Virus record (IMG/VR): IMGVR_UViG_3300033414_000001
Span: 1-64,000 of that record
Source: a virus
Lineage: Duplodnaviria; Caudoviricetes
Direction: 5' to 3' (one strand)
DNA length: 64,000 nt
Both the position numbers and the translations under genes were made by a program. Within the stretch, counting starts at the first letter, position 1. Each line of letters opens with the position of its first letter. The notes under the pieces were generated by a model. The model did no database searches. It was not told the origin of the DNA and saw only the letters and a list, made by a program, of their open reading frames with translations. Shown in pieces: positions 1 through 19,238 of the stretch.

Positions 1-291
1 TTGGCGAAGCTGGCCGAACTGGATCGCGAGATCGAAGCGTATGGGCGCGACTCCCGGCGGCGACATGCCGGCATCCCTGCGGAGCACGTCCCGCATCTCA
101 GCGATCCGCGGGAGACGGTAGCCATGGGGGCGGCGCCTCCTGGGGTCGACGCGGAAACGGGGCTGCTGCTCCCGGAGACGGACGACGGCAAGCGCCGACG
201 CGCCGACCTGCGCAGGATCCTGCCGCCAAAACAGCGCGCCAGGCTCGCGGCGAAGCGCCTGGTGACGAGCAAGAGGAATTACGGCAGGTGA
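1..291 (+). CDS. 3' part of a hypothetical protein running in from before the window
   Basis: Open frame from base 1 to TGA 289-291; converges on a terminator-like hairpin. Confidence 0.45.
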   Translation: MAKLAELDREIEAYGRDSRRRHAGIPAEHVPHLSDPRETVAMGAAPPGVDAETGLLLPETDDGKRRRADLRRILPPKQRARLAAKRLVTSKRNYGR

Positions 292-1774: not shown

Positions 1775-1827
1775 CTAGCTCTCCTTGGCGCGCCGTGGTC
1801 CCGGGCGCGAGGGGCGCTGCGAATCAG

Positions 1828-1870
1828 CAGCGTGAGAGGACTATATACAGGACCGGCTCGCGTGTCAAGT
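1828..1870 (-). promoter_or_regulatory. Repeated sigma70-type early promoter, copy 1
   Basis: TTGACA (1868-1863)-17 bp-TATAGT (1845-1840); 38/43 identical to the copy at 4798-4840. Confidence 0.8.
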
Positions 1871-1902
1871 GTACCCACGAAGGGCACGTCAACGGCGTGT
1901 AG

Positions 1903-2409
1903 TTATTTGCGAATCTTCCGTTTCGCGGGCCCGGGTCGGGGGTCTTGAAGACCACCCGATTCCCACCCCTCCGCCCATTCCTCCAGGGCCTCCGAGGCCG
2001 CCGTGGCGAGCGGGAGATCCGGCCGGCCCCTGGCACTCGACGCCTCCCGGAGCGCGGCCAGCGCCTTCGCCGAGACCCGCACGTGACTGATCTCGGGTCT
2101 GGCCTCGCGCTCCTCTCTCGGCAGTCCGAGGGCCCGGAGCGGCTCGCCGGGGTGACGCCTCCGCCGCACGTAGTGGCCCCAGCACAAGCCGAAGGCGATG
2201 ACCGGTTGGCCACAGGACGCACCCTCCTTGCGCCCGGGGGCGGGACAGGTGGGCCGGGGCGGCGACGCCGCGCGCGCGTCGTCCTCAGCGTAGACGGCGC
2301 GCTGGCGCTCAATGGCGACGGGGTCGTAGGCCGCGACCGGCCCGCCGCTCGGGGACAGCAGATCTCGGCGTGAGGCCGCGGCGACGGCGCTGTTCCTGGG
2401 CTTGCTCAT
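1903..2409 (-). CDS. Zn-ribbon (C..C..GLCWGHY) plus probable ribbon-helix-helix DNA-binding protein
   Basis: CPAPG..CGQPV.AFGLCWGHYVRRRR motif followed by HVRVSAKALAALREA. Confidence 0.55.
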   Translation of the reverse strand: MSKPRNSAVAAASRRDLLSPSGGPVAAYDPVAIERQRAVYAEDDARAASPPRPTCPAPGRKEGASCGQPVIAFGLCWGHYVRRRRHPGEPLRALGLPREEREARPEISHVRVSAKALAALREASSARGRPDLPLATAASEALEEWAEGWESGGLQDPRPGPAKRKIRK

Positions 2410-2639
2410 AGCGACTCCATCTCCGACGCCACGCGGGCCAGGCTGGCGGCGGTCTCGTGGCCGGAATCACGCAGCGCCGCGCGGGCTGCCTCCATGGCGT
2501 CGAGCAGCTCGCCGCGCGCACGACTCCAGCGATCTCCGTGCATTCCGGGTTGGGCAAGGTCCGCCTCGATGGCGGCAATCAGGCGCCGGAGGATCAGGGA
2601 GTGGTCACGGCGAGGCTCAGGGGTTGGGCGGGTAGGCAT
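2406..2639 (-). CDS. Small helical hypothetical protein
   Basis: ATGA-type overlap with the downstream gene; GGAGG RBS. Confidence 0.5.
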   Translation of the reverse strand: MPTRPTPEPRRDHSLILRRLIAAIEADLAQPGMHGDRWSRARGELLDAMEAARAALRDSGHETAASLARVASEMESL

Positions 2640-3147
2640 GTTACCTCCAGATAACGGCAACGGCGATGGCGAGCGCCGCGAACGGAAGGGCGCACATGGA
2701 GAGCAGCAGGGCGAAATCGAGGATATCGGCGGTGCGCTGCTGGGGTGGGATTCGGATCACGGCGAAATCTCCAGACGGTAGGTGAGGGGAAGATCGGCGG
2801 CCTCCAGGAGGCCCCGAGACCATTTGGGGCGATCGTCGTAGTGAACCTCCTCGATCTCGGTCTGGGATAGCGGTTGGACGTAGCCCAACACCTCAGCCTC
2901 GATCTCGGCGCGGGAGCGTCGAGCCTCGACGGCGCGGCTACCCATGCATCCGCGCAGCAGTCTCCGGGACGACCAAGGCCCTGGGTCTCTCTTGGATCCC
3001 TCGCGCCAGATCCAGTCTCCGTAGGCCCGGCGCCAGCCCAGCGGTTTCACGGCGACGCCTCGACGCGGAGCGGAGCCACCCACCTGTTCCCGTGCTCCTC
3101 GTCCGGGAGCCGGCGTGCGTCGCGCTCCTCATACTTCAGACCCGCGG

Positions 3148-3845: not shown

Positions 3846-4217
3846 CTACAGGAACTCGCTTTCGCCGCAGGGGCACTCGTCCCACGACTTCCCAGCGTTC
3901 GAGCCGCGGACCACGACGTGCCGGGTGCGCCGCTTCCCGCACGGGCACTTCGTGCGCTGGCGGGACAGTCGATCCACCTCGGCAGCCGCTGCGGCTGCGT
4001 AGGCGCGGTAGTAGGCCTGCTCCAGCCGGGAGGGGATGCCCTCGATCTCCGCGGCGCCCGCGTTGATCGCGCCCTCGTCCCAGGCGACATGCCCATCCCT
4101 GAGCGTGCCCAGCACGGCCCCGAGGCCCTGCTCTCGGAGCATGTCCCGGACCTCTCCGCGACCAGCTCGCGCGCCCTTCCGTTGCGCCGCCAGCTTGGCT
4201 TTGCTCTTGATGGCCAT
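3846..4217 (-). CDS. Hypothetical protein with C-terminal Cys cluster
   Basis: GGAG RBS; KCPCG...WDECPCG. Confidence 0.6.
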   Translation of the reverse strand: MAIKSKAKLAAQRKGARAGRGEVRDMLREQGLGAVLGTLRDGHVAWDEGAINAGAAEIEGIPSRLEQAYYRAYAAAAAAEVDRLSRQRTKCPCGKRRTRHVVVRGSNAGKSWDECPCGESEFL

Positions 4218-4260
4218 GACTCTCTCCGTCTGGTGTAGCGGGTTAACTACGAGTCCCTGC

Positions 4261-10974: not shown

Positions 10975-11630
10975 TCCCGCTCGCCGTCACCGCCCACCTG
11001 GCCGGCGGGATCGCGCTTCCCTCGGGCGCGCTCGCCCTCGATGCGCTGCTGATGGCGGCCGTCGCTCTGCGGGACGGCCTGCCTCCTCTGTCGATCGGCC
11101 AGGAGCGCCCCGAGATCTCGATCCCAATCGAGAAGGAGCCCCGGGGGCGCTTCCACCTCGCCAGCTTCGCCGTGGCTGACTGGGAGGAGCACGAGTTACG
11201 GTACGTGAACAAACGTTTCCCCGTCGCAGAAGCGCAGGCCCTGGCCGGCCCGAAGTTCCGACGCATCCAGATCACCGCCGGCCCGTGCAAGAGCCACCGC
11301 ATTCCCATGGAGACCGGCCACCTCCGCGGTGACGCACTCCGGTGGTGGTGCCTAGGGGAGGCCGAGCCGATCCGAGACCTGCTCGGCCTGGTGAGCCACC
11401 TGGGGAAGCGCCGCGGGGTGGGGCTGGGGCGTGTAGCGGAATGGCACGTTGAGCCCGCAGAGCCATGGCCTGGATTCCCGATCCTGCGGGATGGTCTTCC
11501 GCTCCGCTATCTTCCGCCCGATTGGCCGGGGCTCGCGTCACCTCCTCCGCTCGGATACGCCGTGCTGTCGCCGCCCTACTGGGAGCGCATGCGAGAGGAG
11601 CTGTGCGCGGTACCTGAGGCGATGCCATGA
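10971..11630 (+). CDS. csf3: Type IV Csf3 (Cas5 group)
   Basis: ALDALL, HLGKRRGVGLGRV, C-terminal PPYW; ATGA-coupled to csf2. Confidence 0.88.
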   Translation: MIPLAVTAHLAGGIALPSGALALDALLMAAVALRDGLPPLSIGQERPEISIPIEKEPRGRFHLASFAVADWEEHELRYVNKRFPVAEAQALAGPKFRRIQITAGPCKSHRIPMETGHLRGDALRWWCLGEAEPIRDLLGLVSHLGKRRGVGLGRVAEWHVEPAEPWPGFPILRDGLPLRYLPPDWPGLASPPPLGYAVLSPPYWERMREELCAVPEAMP

Positions 11631-12481
11631 TGCCCAACGGAAAGGAGGTGAGCGAATGGCCAAGGGGAAAGGAAAGGGCGGAGGGAAGGGAACTGGCTCC
11701 GGCGGCAACGGAGGCGGCCGATAGGCCGCAGTCAGCGCTGCGCCCGGAAGATCTGGTCTGGGCGCAGCTCGCCACCTTCCGGCGAAAGGTGGAACGCAGC
11801 CTGGAGGCAATCCGCAAGGCCGCGGCGATCGGGCCCGTCGGAGTCGCCTTTTCTGGGGGCAAGGACAGCACAGTGACGCTCGACTTGGTGCGGCAGGTCG
11901 TTCCGGGTGCGCCCGCAGGCTTCTTCGATTCGGGCTGCGAGCTGGAGTCCACGATGGATCTGGTGCGCCGATCCGGAGCCGAGATCGTCACGCCGCGCCT
12001 CAGCATGCTGGAGATGGCGCGCTACGCGGGGTGGTGGGAGTACGAGAAGCCCGTCGACGCTGGGTGCCCGTTCGACGCCAAGCACATCGTCATCCAGGAG
12101 CCCAGCGAAACCTTCGTGGTTCGCCGCGGGCTGCGCTGCATCGCTACTGGGCTACGCGCAGAGGAAAGCGGAGCGCGAGCGCGCAACGCCTCCTCCCGCG
12201 GTGAGCTGTACCAAGGCGCGGATCGTACCTGGTACTGTGCGCCGCTTGCCTTCTGGCGCATCGCTGACGTGTGGGCGCACATCGCGAGCCGGAAGCTGGA
12301 CTACAACTCAGCATACGATCGGATGTCCGAGGCTGGAGTGCCGCGCGAGTCGCAGCGAGTCGCCACGCTATTGGGCGACCGCGGATCGGGGATGGGTCGG
12401 CACGCGTGGCTTCGCATGTCTGAGCCGAGTAGATGGCGGGAGATAGTGCGCGAATTCCCGGGCATCGCCAGGCTTTCCTGA
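11627..12481 (+). CDS. cysH: CysH/PAPS-reductase-like protein (type IV-B associated)
   Basis: PP-loop VAFSGGKDSTV, TGLRAEES, PLAFWRIADVWAHI; true start uncertain (11627 or a later codon such as CTG 11738). Confidence 0.88.
   Translation: MMPNGKEVSEWPRGKERAEGRELAPAATEAADRPQSALRPEDLVWAQLATFRRKVERSLEAIRKAAAIGPVGVAFSGGKDSTVTLDLVRQVVPGAPAGFFDSGCELESTMDLVRRSGAEIVTPRLSMLEMARYAGWWEYEKPVDAGCPFDAKHIVIQEPSETFVVRRGLRCIATGLRAEESGARARNASSRGELYQGADRTWYCAPLAFWRIADVWAHIASRKLDYNSAYDRMSEAGVPRESQRVATLLGDRGSGMGRHAWLRMSEPSRWREIVREFPGIARLS
11656..11724 (+). CDS. 22-aa Gly/Lys-rich micro-ORF MAKGKGKGGGKGTGSGGNGGGR
   Basis: AAAGGAGGTGA (11641-11651) Shine-Dalgarno 4 nt before ATG; out of frame within the cysH 5' region. 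Confidence 0.5.
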   Translation: MAKGKGKGGGKGTGSGGNGGGR

Positions 12482-12492
12482 CCATCAAGATC

Positions 12493-13992
12493 GTGACCCC
12501 TGACACACAACTCCGATCTCTCCGGCAGCGCGCCGTCCAAGCTCGCGTCGCCCGTGTGCGGCTCGCGCGAGAGGATCCCAATACCTTTGCGCAGTTCGTG
12601 ATGCGAGACGAGGAGACCGGATCACCGATCCGGCAGGCCCCGACGCACATCGCATGGCATGACCTAGCCTCGACGTATCGCAACCTACTGGTGTGGTCGC
12701 ACGTGGAGGCGGGCAAGACCATTCAACTGTCGGTCACTCGCCCATTATGGGAGCTGGGCCGCGACCCCACGCTTCGGGTCGCCATCCTGTCGAACACTAG
12801 CGGCCAGGCGGTCAAGATCGGCAGGCTGATAGCCAAGTACATCGAGGAGTCGGAGGAGCTGCACGCCGTATTCCCGGATCTTGTCCCGGACCCCGACCCC
12901 AAGAGCCCCTGGAACACCACCAATCTCACGGTCAAGCGCAAGACCCGCTCCAAGGACCCGAGCATTCAGATCTTGGGCGTGCACGGCAACGTGCTTGGAT
13001 CACGAATCGATCTGCTCATTGTCGATGACATCCTCGACCGCGAGAACACGCTCACTCCGAAGGCGCGCAACGATCTGTGGTCCTGGTATCAGGCCACAGT
13101 GGTCGGGCGTCTGTCGTCCCGCTCTCGCGTGATCGTGGTGGGCAACGCGTGGCACCCAGGCAGCACCCAGGACCCGGGCGATCTCATGCACCGGCTGGCG
13201 CGCATGGCCGGGTGGAAGGCCGTTCGCTACCCGGTGATGGACGAGAGGGGCGCGCCGCGCTGGCCGGAGCGATGGCCGACAGAGCGCATTGATTACCGCC
13301 GCGGCGAGATGATCCCGGAAGAGTTCGCCCGACAGATGATGTGCGTGGCCCGCGACGACAGCAGCTCGCGATTCCGGGCGGAGTGGATCGAGCGCTGTCT
13401 GCGCAACGGGGACGGGCTCAAGCTCGCATGGGGTTTCGATGCCGCCAAGGTGCCGGGCTGTAGAACGTACACGGGCGTGGATCTGGGCGTTGGTCATCAG
13501 AAGTCGGACCTGACCTGCCTATTCCACATCGCGGTGATGCCGGACGAGTCGCGACGCATCCTGGGCGTCGAGTCGGGGCGGTGGCAGGCGCCCGAGGTGC
13601 GCGATCGGATCATCGACGCCCATCGGCGCTACGACAGCATCCTGGTGGTCGAGAACAATGGGTTCCAGGATTTCCTCGTGCAGCTCATCCGGAGTTCCAC
13701 CGCAATCCCCATCATCGCGTTCACCACGGGGCGCAACAAGGCCGACCCCAATTTCGGCATCGAATCCATGGCGGTCGAGCTGGCGAACGGGAAGTGGATC
13801 ATCCCGAACGAGGAGAGGCGCCCGCACAAGGAGATCGAGGCGTGGATCTCGGAGTTGCTCTATTACGATCCGAACTCACACGCTGGCGATCGACTGATGG
13901 CGTCCTGGTTTGCTACATGGGGCGCGCGCAAGGGAGGATCGGCAGGCGGACCGACGATCGAAAGCGGGCCGCTCGATACGCTGCGGAGGTGA
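12493..13992 (+). CDS. terL: Terminase large subunit
   Basis: Walker A-like HVEAGKT, Walker B LLIVDD, coupling GNAWH, nuclease YTGVDLG, VENNGFQ, DRLMASW. Confidence 0.93.
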   Translation: MTPDTQLRSLRQRAVQARVARVRLAREDPNTFAQFVMRDEETGSPIRQAPTHIAWHDLASTYRNLLVWSHVEAGKTIQLSVTRPLWELGRDPTLRVAILSNTSGQAVKIGRLIAKYIEESEELHAVFPDLVPDPDPKSPWNTTNLTVKRKTRSKDPSIQILGVHGNVLGSRIDLLIVDDILDRENTLTPKARNDLWSWYQATVVGRLSSRSRVIVVGNAWHPGSTQDPGDLMHRLARMAGWKAVRYPVMDERGAPRWPERWPTERIDYRRGEMIPEEFARQMMCVARDDSSSRFRAEWIERCLRNGDGLKLAWGFDAAKVPGCRTYTGVDLGVGHQKSDLTCLFHIAVMPDESRRILGVESGRWQAPEVRDRIIDAHRRYDSILVVENNGFQDFLVQLIRSSTAIPIIAFTTGRNKADPNFGIESMAVELANGKWIIPNEERRPHKEIEAWISELLYYDPNSHAGDRLMASWFATWGARKGGSAGGPTIESGPLDTLRR

Positions 13993-16384: not shown

Positions 16385-16430
16385 ACGAAGGGCCCCGGAG
16401 TCATGACCTCCGAGGCCCTTCAAGATAAGC

Positions 16431-16501
16431 GGGGCTAGCACGGTTGCCGGGACGGACTTTAGACACTGACCCGGGCGGTTCAACTCCGTCTAGTTCCACC
16501 A
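16431..16501 (+). ncRNA. 71-nt tRNA-Ala/tmRNA-like mini RNA
   Basis: GGGGCTA/TAGTTCC acceptor with G3.U70, discriminator A, encoded CCA, T-arm GGCGG-TTCAACT-CCGTC; central part lacks canonical D and anticodon arms. Confidence 0.6.
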
Positions 16502-16717
16502 GATTCGAGCGCCCAAAAGAGGACACCCGATCGCGCAACGATTCGGATCCTCTCACAATCTCGTGCGCGCCGTCAAGGTACGCGTGGCTGGGACGCGCCT
16601 TGGTGAGGAGGGTTCAGTGCGGAGTTCCGACCGCATACTAAGACGCTAGGGGCGCGAGATCGCCCCGCGATCAACGGGCATCACGGGAGACCCCGTGATG
16701 CCCGAGTCTGCGCTGAC

Positions 16718-16751
16718 TATGCTTGACCGCTTAAGCATAAAGAGCGATACT
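16718..16751 (+). promoter_or_regulatory. Transposase promoter with overlapping palindrome
   Basis: TTGACC (16723-16728)-17 bp-GATACT (16746-16751); TATGCTT/AAGCATA inverted repeat. Confidence 0.7.
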
Positions 16752-16757
16752 CCTGCC

Positions 16758-16859
16758 ATGAACAAGCTGACGAACGAGAAGCGGGTTGCGGTGGTGAAGG
16801 CGCTGGTGGAGGGGATGAGCATCCGCGCCACCGTCCGCATGACCGGCGTGGCGAAGAAC
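16758..16859 (+). pseudogene. IS1-family transposase 5' stub fused in frame to phage sequence
   Basis: 34 codons of HTH N-terminus, then unrelated DGYDGRHP; no DDE domain. Confidence 0.75.
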
Positions 16860-16910
16860 GATGGGTATGACGGAAGACATCCTGACTGCGTTCCAGGGGT
16901 TCGCCCGGCC

Positions 16911-17261
16911 ATGACCGACGCGCAACTGGTCACAGTTCTCAGGCGGGGCGGGTTCGCGCCCCGGGGCGTGCGCGCTCTCATGGCCGCGAAGCGCGAGTTG
17001 GAGCAGGAGATAACGAGATGCGCTGGGCGCGCCCACAATCGGGGCGAGCTCAGAGGACTGCGCTGGAGCGGGAGAGAGCTTCGTTGCGCAGGAGAACTGC
17101 TCACCCGCTACGCCATCCAGTACTCGCTGACTCAACTGTCCCCGCCCGAAGAGTTGGCCAAGAGGCTTGATGCCGGCGGCCACGCTCGGGCGGCCATGGT
17201 GTTGCGCCGGCTCGGGGACGAAATGGGAGTCCCGGCTCTTCTGCTGGAGTCGACGAGATGA
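16911..17261 (+). CDS. Hypothetical protein
   Basis: ATG 16911; ATGA overlaps at both ends. Confidence 0.5.
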   Translation: MTDAQLVTVLRRGGFAPRGVRALMAAKRELEQEITRCAGRAHNRGELRGLRWSGRELRCAGELLTRYAIQYSLTQLSPPEELAKRLDAGGHARAAMVLRRLGDEMGVPALLLESTR

Positions 17262-17503: not shown

Positions 17504-17576
17504 CGGAGCTCTTTCGCGGCTAGGTGGCGCGTGACCGCGGGCCGTGGCACAGTATCGCCGCGGAGGCGCACGACGC

Positions 17577-19238
17577 ATGAGTTCAGGGACGATCGTTGAG
17601 CCGCAGGCGGCCCGGCAGGCAGCGATGACGGCCAGCGGCAAGTTCATCGACGGCATCGCCCGTCTCGGCCTATCTCCGCGACAGCAAGCGCTGAACGAGT
17701 TGTGGTCGTGGTACCGATGCGTGCGCTACGACGCGCGAACAACCGACTGGGACGGGTCGAAGCATGTCGACGGCCTCGACGCGGAGGTCATTTCCCAGGC
17801 CGCGTTCATCCCCCCGGGCTTCTACGACGCGAGCGGCGGCCAGGTCCCGTTGAAGTTCCGGCGCCCCACCGCGCCGTACGCGCTGGGAAAGGTCATCCCG
17901 GATCGGTTCACTGGCTTGCTCTTCTCGGAGCGCCGCAGTCCGCGCATCAGCGTGGAGGGGGACGAGAAGACCCAGGACTACGTGAGCGCGATAGCCGAGG
18001 TCGGGCGTCTGTGGCCGACCATGATCCAGGCCCGAACCTACGGCGGCGCGACCGGGACCGTGGCGCTCGGGTTCTCGTTCCACAAGGGTCGGCCGGTCTT
18101 CGAGGTTCATGACGCGCGTTGGTGCGTCCCGGACTTCAAGGATCGCTCCCAGCTCGTTCTTCGCTCGATCGAGAAGCGGTATCAGTACCCGGTCGAGCAG
18201 CGCAACATGATCACCGGGCGGTGGGAGGAGATCCCGCACTGGTATCGTCGCGTCATCGACGAGCAGCGCGATACGCTGTATTCGCCAATTCCGGTGCCTG
18301 ACAACGGCGAAGAGCCGGACTGGGAGGTACAGGAGGAGGCGCAACACGGATACGGGTTCTGCCCCGTGGTGTGGATTCAGAACCTCCCGGTGCAGGATTC
18401 AATCGACGGGGATCCGGACTGTCACGGCATCTTCCCGATGATTGAGTCCATTGATGCGCTGATAGCGCAGGGTAACCGATCCACGATCTTCAACTGCGAC
18501 CCCACGCTAGTAGTCAACAGCGATGCTACAATGTCGGATGTTTCGAAGGGGTCCGGGCATGCTCTCAAGATCCCCGCCAACTCCGGCGCGAGGTACATGG
18601 AAATCTCCGGCACGGGGCCGAAGGCCGCCTTCGAGGCAGCCGACAAGCTCCGAGCCTACGCGCTGGAGGTGGCCCAATGCGTGCTCGACCATCCCGACTC
18701 CGTGCAGCGAACCGCGCAGGAGATCGAGCGCGTCTACTCCTCGATGCTCGCCAAGGCCGACATCCTCCGCGAGCAGTACGGTCAGAGAGGGGTGCTTCCG
18801 CTGCTCAACATGGTCGTGGAGGCAGTCCGAAAGCTCGGCACTCCCGTGGCGGCCGAGCCCCAGGGAGTTGTGGGCGCCGCGATCGTGCGTCGCGTCGTCG
18901 AGCTCCCGCCTCGCCTGATTCCGCAGGCGGACGGGGAGCCGCCGAAGCTCGTGCCCAGAGAGCTTGGGCCGCGCGGCAGTACGCTCCAGCTCCAATGGGG
19001 GCCATACTTCGCGCCGTCCATCACGGATACGTCCAACTCGGTCACTGCGGCAGCAAAAGCGAAAGAGGCGGGGCTCATCGACCGGGAGCACGCCAGCCAG
19101 TTCGTCGCCTCCGACTTCCGGGTGGAGGACGTGGGGCACATGCTCGCCAAGATCGAGCAGGAGAAGCAGGACGAGCAGGCTAGGATCGAGCAAAGCCTGA
19201 TGAGTGGCCTAGGCGGGCCGAGCGGGTTGGGCGCGTGA
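17577..19238 (+). CDS. Portal protein
   Basis: ~550 aa downstream of terL; PVVWIQNLP...DGDPD, helical C-terminus, position before head genes. Confidence 0.85.
   Translation: MSSGTIVEPQAARQAAMTASGKFIDGIARLGLSPRQQALNELWSWYRCVRYDARTTDWDGSKHVDGLDAEVISQAAFIPPGFYDASGGQVPLKFRRPTAPYALGKVIPDRFTGLLFSERRSPRISVEGDEKTQDYVSAIAEVGRLWPTMIQARTYGGATGTVALGFSFHKGRPVFEVHDARWCVPDFKDRSQLVLRSIEKRYQYPVEQRNMITGRWEEIPHWYRRVIDEQRDTLYSPIPVPDNGEEPDWEVQEEAQHGYGFCPVVWIQNLPVQDSIDGDPDCHGIFPMIESIDALIAQGNRSTIFNCDPTLVVNSDATMSDVSKGSGHALKIPANSGARYMEISGTGPKAAFEAADKLRAYALEVAQCVLDHPDSVQRTAQEIERVYSSMLAKADILREQYGQRGVLPLLNMVVEAVRKLGTPVAAEPQGVVGAAIVRRVVELPPRLIPQADGEPPKLVPRELGPRGSTLQLQWGPYFAPSITDTSNSVTAAAKAKEAGLIDREHASQFVASDFRVEDVGHMLAKIEQEKQDEQARIEQSLMSGLGGPSGLGA

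Follow-up and report, generated by a model that had tools for sequence, protein, structure and literature searches.

A phage-borne member of a family of compact alanine mini-tRNAs otherwise found in Actinomycetota chromosomes

The segment at positions 16431-16501 of the phage DNA analysed in this study is a discrete RNA gene under selection and a member of an actinobacterial family of alanine mini-tRNAs. The phage record is a complete 78,918-bp (78.9-kb) IMG/VR genome with direct terminal repeats and a GC content of 66.4%; the window, i.e., the whole stretch of DNA that was analysed, is its first 64 kb (64,000 nucleotides). We lean towards the view that the element is a phage-borne representative of the "alanine mini-tRNAs", compact and irregular tRNA-like RNAs whose other members reside in Actinomycetota chromosomes, and that it is predicted to be cut by RNase P, charged by alanyl-tRNA synthetase (AlaRS) and perhaps put to use at the ribosome. 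Irregular tRNAs and tRNA mimics of alanine identity are already known as kinds, and what is new here is the existence of cellular homologues and a fold that is not recognised by current detectors. Literature searches gave no description of the family, and an alanine mini-tRNA family shared by a phage and Actinomycetota chromosomes is apparently undescribed.

An initial sequence-only reading of this stretch had reported a 7-bp acceptor GGGGCTA/TAGTTCC with G3.U70 and a second G.U, followed by A73, CCA and a 5-bp T-stem, and the sequence reads exactly so (Table 1). The acceptor pairs in the phage RNA are G1-C72, G2-C71, G3.U70, G4.U69, C5-G68, U6-A67 and A7-U66. The 36-nt middle folds into the GCA-CGGU-UGC hairpin and then into a CGGG/CCCG stem that surrounds CGG/CUG and the 10-nt loop. 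The topology of the element is a four-way junction without linkers, formed by the 7-bp acceptor, a D-like hairpin (3-4 bp with an NGGU tetraloop), the long arm and the 5-bp T arm. In the outer 4 bp of the long arm, the segment that follows the D hairpin is paired with the would-be variable-loop segment. As this outer stem joins the would-be positions 22-25 to the variable loop, it could take the place of the D stem beneath the anticodon-like arm in the helical stack, and the combined length of the outer stem, the mismatch and the inner stem, as read from the sequence, equals that of stacked D and anticodon stems. The phage copy keeps all 19 modelled pairs and has a complete identity set; its inner stem is the weakest in the family, and the folding energy of the phage RNA is unremarkable by itself (z = -1.57).

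Table 1. Features of the phage mini-tRNA gene, its neighbourhood and the chromosomal loci of its homologues. Positions without a prefix refer to the window.
Feature	Coordinates	Strand	Basis or remark
Whole mini-tRNA-like RNA gene, 71 nt including the encoded CCA	16431..16501	+	R2 covariance model
Acceptor stem, 5' strand GGGGCTA (G1, G2, G3)	16431..16437	+	pairs with 16491-16497
D-like mini hairpin GCA-CGGU-UGC, 3 bp and a GG-containing tetraloop	16438..16447	+	RNAalifold on MAFFT alignment
Single long arm: CGGG/CCCG outer stem, A.A mismatch, CGG/CUG inner stem, 10-nt loop ACUUUAGACA	16448..16473	+	outer-stem covariation
T arm GGCGG-UUCAACU-CCGUC, 5 bp with one G.U	16474..16490	+	sequence reading; family covariation
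Acceptor 3' strand TAGTTCC (U70 at 16494), A73 (16498), CCA (16499-16501)	16491..16501	+	sequence reading
Upstream ORF, 137 aa	15971..16384	+	co-directional with the RNA; no family match
Leader hairpin	16387..16421	+	-25.1 kcal/mol, z = -5.6
Downstream ORF, 188 aa	16695..17261	+	co-directional; given as 257 nt downstream of the RNA; residues 22-55 at 16758-16859
Chromosomal locus I			tandem copies 5' of an AAA+ (MoxR/ChlI-like) ATPase gene
Chromosomal locus IIa			short-chain dehydrogenase gene on one side, ABC solute-binding protein gene on the other
Chromosomal locus IIb	e.g. L240:1501-1573 and orthologues		selA-selB intergenic region

The first homologues were 72-nt look-alikes in Acidimicrobiales MAGs, including Ca. 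Poriferisodalis, which came from a scan of a genome collection for the T loop and the TAGTTCC-ACCA 3' end. R1, a covariance model for which the phage element served as the seed, was positive in 26 of the 79 genomes searched from one Acidimicrobiales family that includes Ca. Poriferisodalis, with 55 copies of 35-55 bits and 1-4 copies per genome. In a 151-genome sample of the class the same model gave two matches, G005 itself and L226 (30.8 bits), the latter being a false positive. The other model, R2, was built from chromosomal copies only, with the phage copy excluded. Against the phage genome R2 matched exactly 16431-16501 (79.3 bits, E 5e-16; runner-up 18 bits), a match much stronger than chance would give, although R2 is not fully independent of the phage element because its members had been gathered with the phage-seeded R1. 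The four helices of the element and its identity set are those of the chromosomal members, which are 69-73 nt long. The sequence-only reading had taken the element for a miniature tRNA-like RNA of alanine identity, and both the sequence and the R2 match confirm this. All covariance-model searches for chromosomal members were performed within Actinomycetota, and in the 151-genome Actinomycetota sample R2 revealed three more carriers (47-63 bits), one of them with tandem copies. This implies that the family is sparse but wider than one clade. For comparison, R2 assigned 27-39 bits to TLD-only phage minis, 32.9 bits to the RNA of phage DS6A and 26-32 bits to ordinary tRNA-Ala.

ARAGORN did not call the element either in the window or in the whole phage, no Rfam family reached its gathering threshold for it, and no tmRNA match was obtained at E<=10; these detectors, which had been proposed as a check on the candidate, currently miss the mini-tRNA family. 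An exact 25-nt pattern of the 3' end had zero matches in viral contigs, and the acceptor/T-loop pattern GGGGC...GGTTCAACTCC retrieved nothing but tRNA-Ala genes, whether ordinary or odd, and a single fragment. A class-specific 17-mer pattern collected 75 viral and 119 metagenome stretches, none of which matched R2 at E<=1e-4, and it was therefore too unspecific.

The covariation search had originally been suggested for homologous IS1-like elements. Compensatory changes turned out to be plentiful, but they occurred in chromosomal homologues and not in IS copies. In the model-guided alignment 95% of the cells were paired, compared with 40-51% in slid controls, and 16 of the 22 pairs had changes on both sides. 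An independently made MAFFT alignment, analysed with RNAalifold, again yielded the acceptor, D hairpin and T arm, with nine covarying pairs. G1-C72 is invariant and G2-C71 nearly so, acceptor pairs 4-7 covary, and four of the five T-stem pairs covary within the family. G3.U70 was present in 29 of 31 rows, the exceptions being one false positive and one degenerate tandem copy, and A73 and the encoded CCA are kept in most homologues. The outer stem occurs in four variants (CGGG/CCCG, CGAG/CUCG, UGCG/CGCA and CCGG/CCGG). Those of the D hairpin include GCA-CGGU-UGC, GCC-GGGU-GGC, GCGC-UGGU-GCGC and CCGC-UGGU-GCGG; across the family its third pair is G.U, C-G or A-U, and at position 8 G-C is replaced by C-G in L246/L248 (C8-G19). 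The latter covariation, seen in the CCGC-UGGU-GCGG form, excluded an 8/4 fold. A canonical cloverleaf for subfamily 1, with CCGG/CCGG as the D stem and UCCCG as the variable loop, was also rejected, as covariation favours the GCN-NGGU-NGC hairpin together with the outer stem. At orthologous loci the elements are 91-92% identical as opposed to 78-83% for their flanks. Judging from these alignments, the mini-tRNA family is under purifying selection. One host copy (L214:2919-2997, minus strand) contains an 8-nt duplication, GACGGTTC, within the T arm and may be a damaged allele.

The copies of the Acidimicrobiales family occupy three syntenic places (loci I, IIa and IIb; Table 1). At loci IIa and IIb a strong hairpin is located 2 nt ahead of the 5' end of the element (in L240 it has 13 bp and z = -5.0), and another hairpin lies 3' of the CCA. 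The possibility that the mini-RNA between selA and selB is the cell's selC was ruled out, because a canonical 92-nt tRNA-Sec(UCA) is present 12-16 kb from locus IIb in the same genomes. The genomes of this Acidimicrobiales family also contain a normal 364-nt tmRNA that has a different acceptor stem and no encoded CCA, and their tRNA-Ala genes are ordinary and clearly distinct from the mini-tRNA. At locus I (L229:1594-1658, and likewise in L228, L230, L233 and L234) a second, degenerate mini-tRNA is found 22 nt past the first; it has A3-U70 in place of G3.U70, a 6-nt T loop and neither a D hairpin nor CCA, its long arm is unchanged, and the triplet in its loop varies (GCA, CCA, GUA, CUA). Another actinobacterial genome (L460:576-716 and 8-69, minus strand) contains an array of three mini-tRNAs with the tRNA-Lys-like loops CUUUUGA, CUUUUGA and CUUUUAA. 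Just 3' of the distant member in L459 lie a gene for an NYN-domain nuclease (1826-2479, plus strand), about 250 nt downstream of the member, and an IS1595 transposase gene (2540-3055, minus strand), about 1 kb away.

In the phage the mini-tRNA is situated on the plus strand in the interval between terL (12433-13992) and the portal gene (17544-19238), which is variable and contains small unassigned ORFs. The leader hairpin begins 3 nt past the stop of the upstream ORF and ends 9 nt short of the 5' end of the RNA. The untranslated stretch of about 190 nt past the mini-tRNA contains two very stable plus-strand hairpins (16649-16668 and 16675-16704, joint z = -6.7), one of which is a perfect 13-bp stem; they are located just ahead of the start of ORF 16695-17261 and across it. 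ARAGORN found no second tRNA or tmRNA in the whole phage genome, there was no tyrosine integrase among the phage genes, and the phage has no SmpB gene; the terminal repeats suggest a non-integrating genome. The element was absent from the whole records of the five nearest phage relatives (L002-L006, chosen by the portal protein). The closest of them (L002, 61% portal identity) carries an ordinary tRNA-Ile(UAU) at 4187-4259 (plus strand) in the same terL-portal interval, amid small Cys-rich ORFs. The phage had no DNA match among cultured phages, the portal matches there being only distant ones (Ralstonia and Komagataeibacter phages), and a terL search revealed no prophage relatives in the candidate host family. 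Two things only, the homologues of the element and the matching GC content, suggest that the host of the phage belongs to Actinomycetota, probably to Acidimicrobiia, and the element thus provides a host lead for an otherwise unassignable phage.

The element had also been taken to be carried by an IS1-like element, and this attribution was not borne out. Around the element there are no terminal inverted repeats, and none of the six flanking ORFs matched a transposase HMM from Pfam or NCBIfam. The sole link is a similarity over 34 aa: in tblastn, residues 22-55 of ORF 16695-17261 were 47-56% identical to the N-terminal HTH of IS1-family transposases (E 6e-4 to 0.2), and outside these residues the ORF is unrelated to IS1 transposases. 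An IS1 remnant in the downstream ORF is possible. The IS1595 transposase encoded near L459 was considered as a further link to the element and discarded, as its N-terminus is unrelated to the phage ORF.

In common with canonical tRNA-Ala, the element has G1-C72, G2-C71, G3.U70, A73, CCA and a T loop of the UUCRANU type; it differs in having no U8, no standard D arm, no variable loop and no NGC anticodon, and neither ARAGORN nor the Rfam tRNA model detects it. Unusual tRNA-Ala genes of other shapes occur in viral contigs as well. A 74-nt tRNA-Ala(UGC) with an unusual D region (GGGGCAGTAGCGGGCTACGGG...) was seen in L010, L013, L014, L016-L018 and about 12 further viral loci, and some viral contigs carry 78-80-nt tRNA-Ala genes with an enlarged D arm. 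The best match of the element in the Rfam clan is tRNA-Sec (13 bits). The family shares the UGGU D tetraloop with the host tRNA-Sec, and the 5' strand of the variable arm of the latter, CGGGACGGG, resembles the long arm. In contrast to tRNA-Sec, the element is 20 nt shorter, has a 7/5 and not an 8/5 branch, and carries A73 and G3.U70 where tRNA-Sec needs Ser/Sec identity. The shared tetraloop, the CGGGACGGG strand and the Rfam match hint that the mini-tRNA family may descend from a tRNA-Sec-like gene.

The mini-tRNAs also resemble allo-tRNAs in several respects. Both are weak tRNA-Sec look-alikes found in bacteria and phages, both occur in tandem (polycistronic) copies, and some allo-tRNAs have alanine identity; the two may also share a D hairpin with a tetraloop and highly diverse loop triplets that include putative stop-codon readers. 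However, allo-tRNAs (Mukai et al. 2017, PMC5389517) are about 90 nt long, with a branch of acceptor and T stems that is 8/4 or 9/3 and with a separate long variable arm, whereas the mini-tRNAs have a 7/5 branch, a lone arm between the D and T arms and 69-73 nt. When allo-tRNA traits were checked, the NGGU tetraloop was present on a stem of merely 3-4 bp, and the loops fitted Y-U-NNN-R-N, with an ambiguous register in the phage copy.

According to the account that we favour, the RNA would be transcribed together with the terL-portal gene block, behind the strong leader hairpin, and its 5' end would be cut by RNase P. The host alanyl-tRNA synthetase, reading the acceptor stem alone, would then attach alanine. 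AlaRS recognises G3.U70 and A73 of the acceptor stem, whatever the remaining molecule, and RNase P recognises the acceptor/T branch together with the CCA; by these rules the RNA should be excised and alanine-charged. Charging of the RNA by AlaRS is a prediction that probably holds. At the ribosome, the anticodon-loop-like distal loop of the alanylated RNA might read a stop or sense codon, and such a role would be distinct from the SmpB-dependent mimicry of tmRNA.

The distal loops of the family are CUGUAAA, CUCUAAA, CUGAUAC, CUCAGAC, CUCCAAA, CUUGGAA, CUUUUGA and CUUAGAC, all of which fit Y32-U33-NNN-R37-N38. The triplet differs among orthologues (e.g., GUA vs CUA), and in the best-formed copies a 7-nt loop is closed by a 5-bp stem with one mismatch. 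The phage loop offers the heptads CUUUAGA or UUUAGAC, that is, the register CU-UUA-GA or UU-UAG-AC. With a 10-nt loop on an inner stem of only 3 bp, the phage copy has an ambiguous anticodon register (UUA/UAG) and a doubtful decoding competence. The UUAGA loop motif recurs in the distant members L459 and L461. More generally, loops of 8-10 nt leave room for choosing a fitting register, and few of the lineages are independent, so that the reading of the distal loops as anticodons is only suggestive. In the phage genes we observed no excess of in-frame TAA/TAG codons joining coding-like segments, and the few cases represented adjacent genes. At the same time, Mukai et al. 2017 (PMC5389517) reported that G3:U70 allo-tRNAs, the wild-type anticodons of which are GCG or UUA, translated amber efficiently in E. 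coli when given a CUA anticodon, and that alanine is among the residues inserted by allo-tRNAs. This precedent, the loop signature and the arm length favour use at the ribosome. The step that follows charging might be the action of the alanylated RNA as a non-canonical alanine tRNA at the ribosome, a possibility that we take seriously while giving it a minority chance. Alanine placed at Tyr, Ile or Lys codons would harm the cell, which was counted against a decoding role. A more far-reaching version would regard the family as a new structural class of working tRNA, charged by AlaRS, built as a 69-73-nt linker-free four-way junction, with a helix that involves the would-be variable-loop strand in place of the D stem, and decoding stop or sense codons through a fast-evolving anticodon. 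Actinomycetota would then maintain natural suppressor or missense tRNAs for alanine at conserved loci, selA-selB among them, and the phage would have captured one to alter decoding during infection; we regard this version as rather doubtful.

One explanation that competes with the preferred one is that the element represents a TLD-only mini-tmRNA of the DS6A type, which would bind SmpB and enter stalled ribosomes or titrate SmpB, thereby inhibiting or short-circuiting host trans-translation. The "TLD only" tmRNA of mycobacteriophage DS6A (tmID 11587 of the tmRNA Website; Mao et al. 2009 as cited) is said, in PMC4131195 and PMC11915505, to inhibit tmRNA in E. coli. We located this 83-nt RNA at L160:28478-28560, and a pattern scan with a paired-acceptor filter detected at least 17 similar alanine-identity minis of 60-82 nt in other viral contigs, which ARAGORN did not call. 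These viral minis have tmRNA-like 5' ends (GGGGGUG..GG.U.UCGAC), after which a short capped helix leads to GAC and the T arm. The likeness to the element is considerable: all are phage-borne RNAs of about 60-83 nt with the same topology, a 7-bp acceptor, G3.U70, A73, CCA, a GG-containing D element and a single helix that leads from it and abuts a canonical T arm, and all lack a variable region as well as a tag reading frame. However, the Rfam tmRNA model (RF00023) scored 34.7 bits for the DS6A RNA (E 1e-12) and 66 bits for the L049 mini but gave no match for the element at E<=10, and the D-loop/P2 signature GGnUUCGAC ... GAC is replaced in the element by a base-paired D hairpin. These two results also speak against the original assignment of the element to the tRNA-like domain of tmRNA. 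Moreover, unlike DS6A-type RNAs, the element has a long arm with an anticodon-loop-like loop, and its homologues are maintained at conserved loci in bacteria that already have the normal 364-nt tmRNA; R2 ranked the TLD-only minis no higher than ordinary tRNA-Ala. We therefore consider the mini-tmRNA explanation unlikely. The variation of the loop triplets among close orthologues on a conserved body would instead agree with a decoy, bait or replacement for a factor that targets tRNAs, such as a nuclease from a defence or toxin-antitoxin system that acts on anticodon loops, or an enzyme of tRNA modification or repair, by which essential tRNAs would be spared. The tandem arrays, including the one with three tRNA-Lys-like loops (CUUUUGA/CUUUUAA), the NYN-domain nuclease gene 3' of one member, and the location of irregular and allo-tRNAs near toxin-antitoxin systems as reported in PMC5389517 point in the same direction. 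A decoy, though, does not need the strict conservation of G3.U70, A73 and CCA, and there is no nuclease or toxin-antitoxin gene beside the phage copy or the three conserved Acidimicrobiales loci, which leaves this explanation quite improbable.

It could also be proposed that the element punctuates mRNA: RNase P would cut at its 5' side and another enzyme at its 3' side, so that the upstream message would end in a protective hairpin, the downstream one would receive a new 5' end, and the RNA itself would be a by-product. The position of the element between or ahead of co-directional genes in the phage and at all three host loci fits this idea, as do the strong hairpin directly 5' of it in the phage and at loci IIa and IIb and the second hairpin past the CCA at the latter two. 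Nevertheless, recognition by RNase P explains neither the invariant G3.U70 and A73 nor the covarying long arm and the conserved loop features. Punctuation is, in addition, compatible with alanylation and might be a further role of the RNA more than a real alternative; as the whole explanation it has very little in its favour to our judgement. Finally, the element might have no function in the phage and be the decaying pseudogene of a tRNA or tRNA-Sec, the remains of an att site or a resemblance due to chance. Its weak inner stem, its position in a variable region of unassigned small ORFs, its absence from the five nearest phages and the tRNA-Ile(UAU) that one of them has in the same interval would suit a relic. 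Against it stand the 19 intact pairs with the complete identity set and the purifying selection on the family. Both RNA ends are present, the whole fold covaries among homologues, there is no tyrosine integrase, and the terminal repeats suggest a genome that does not integrate; accordingly, the earlier statement that this is not an att fragment holds, and a functionless relic is hardly credible.

If the mini-tRNA is indeed charged with alanine, tRNA mimics that accept alanine would be reached by a second route, with a structure distinct from that of the tag-less tmRNA. Unlike the mini-tmRNAs of phages, the mini-tRNA occurs both in cells and in a phage, and chromosomes conserve it at fixed loci. 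It raises the question of how far a tRNA can be shortened and rearranged without losing its processing, its charging and perhaps its use by the ribosome, and also whether bacteria possess dedicated alanine suppressor or missense tRNAs and for what reason a phage would carry one.

Two other features of the window were observed. A type II hammerhead ribozyme is encoded at 1302-1368 on the minus strand, with a score (43 bits, E 1.9e-5) that exceeds the Rfam gathering score, and a PAPS-reductase-like gene (Pfam PF01507, PHROG 2302) lies at 11627-12481 on the plus strand, immediately 5' of terL.
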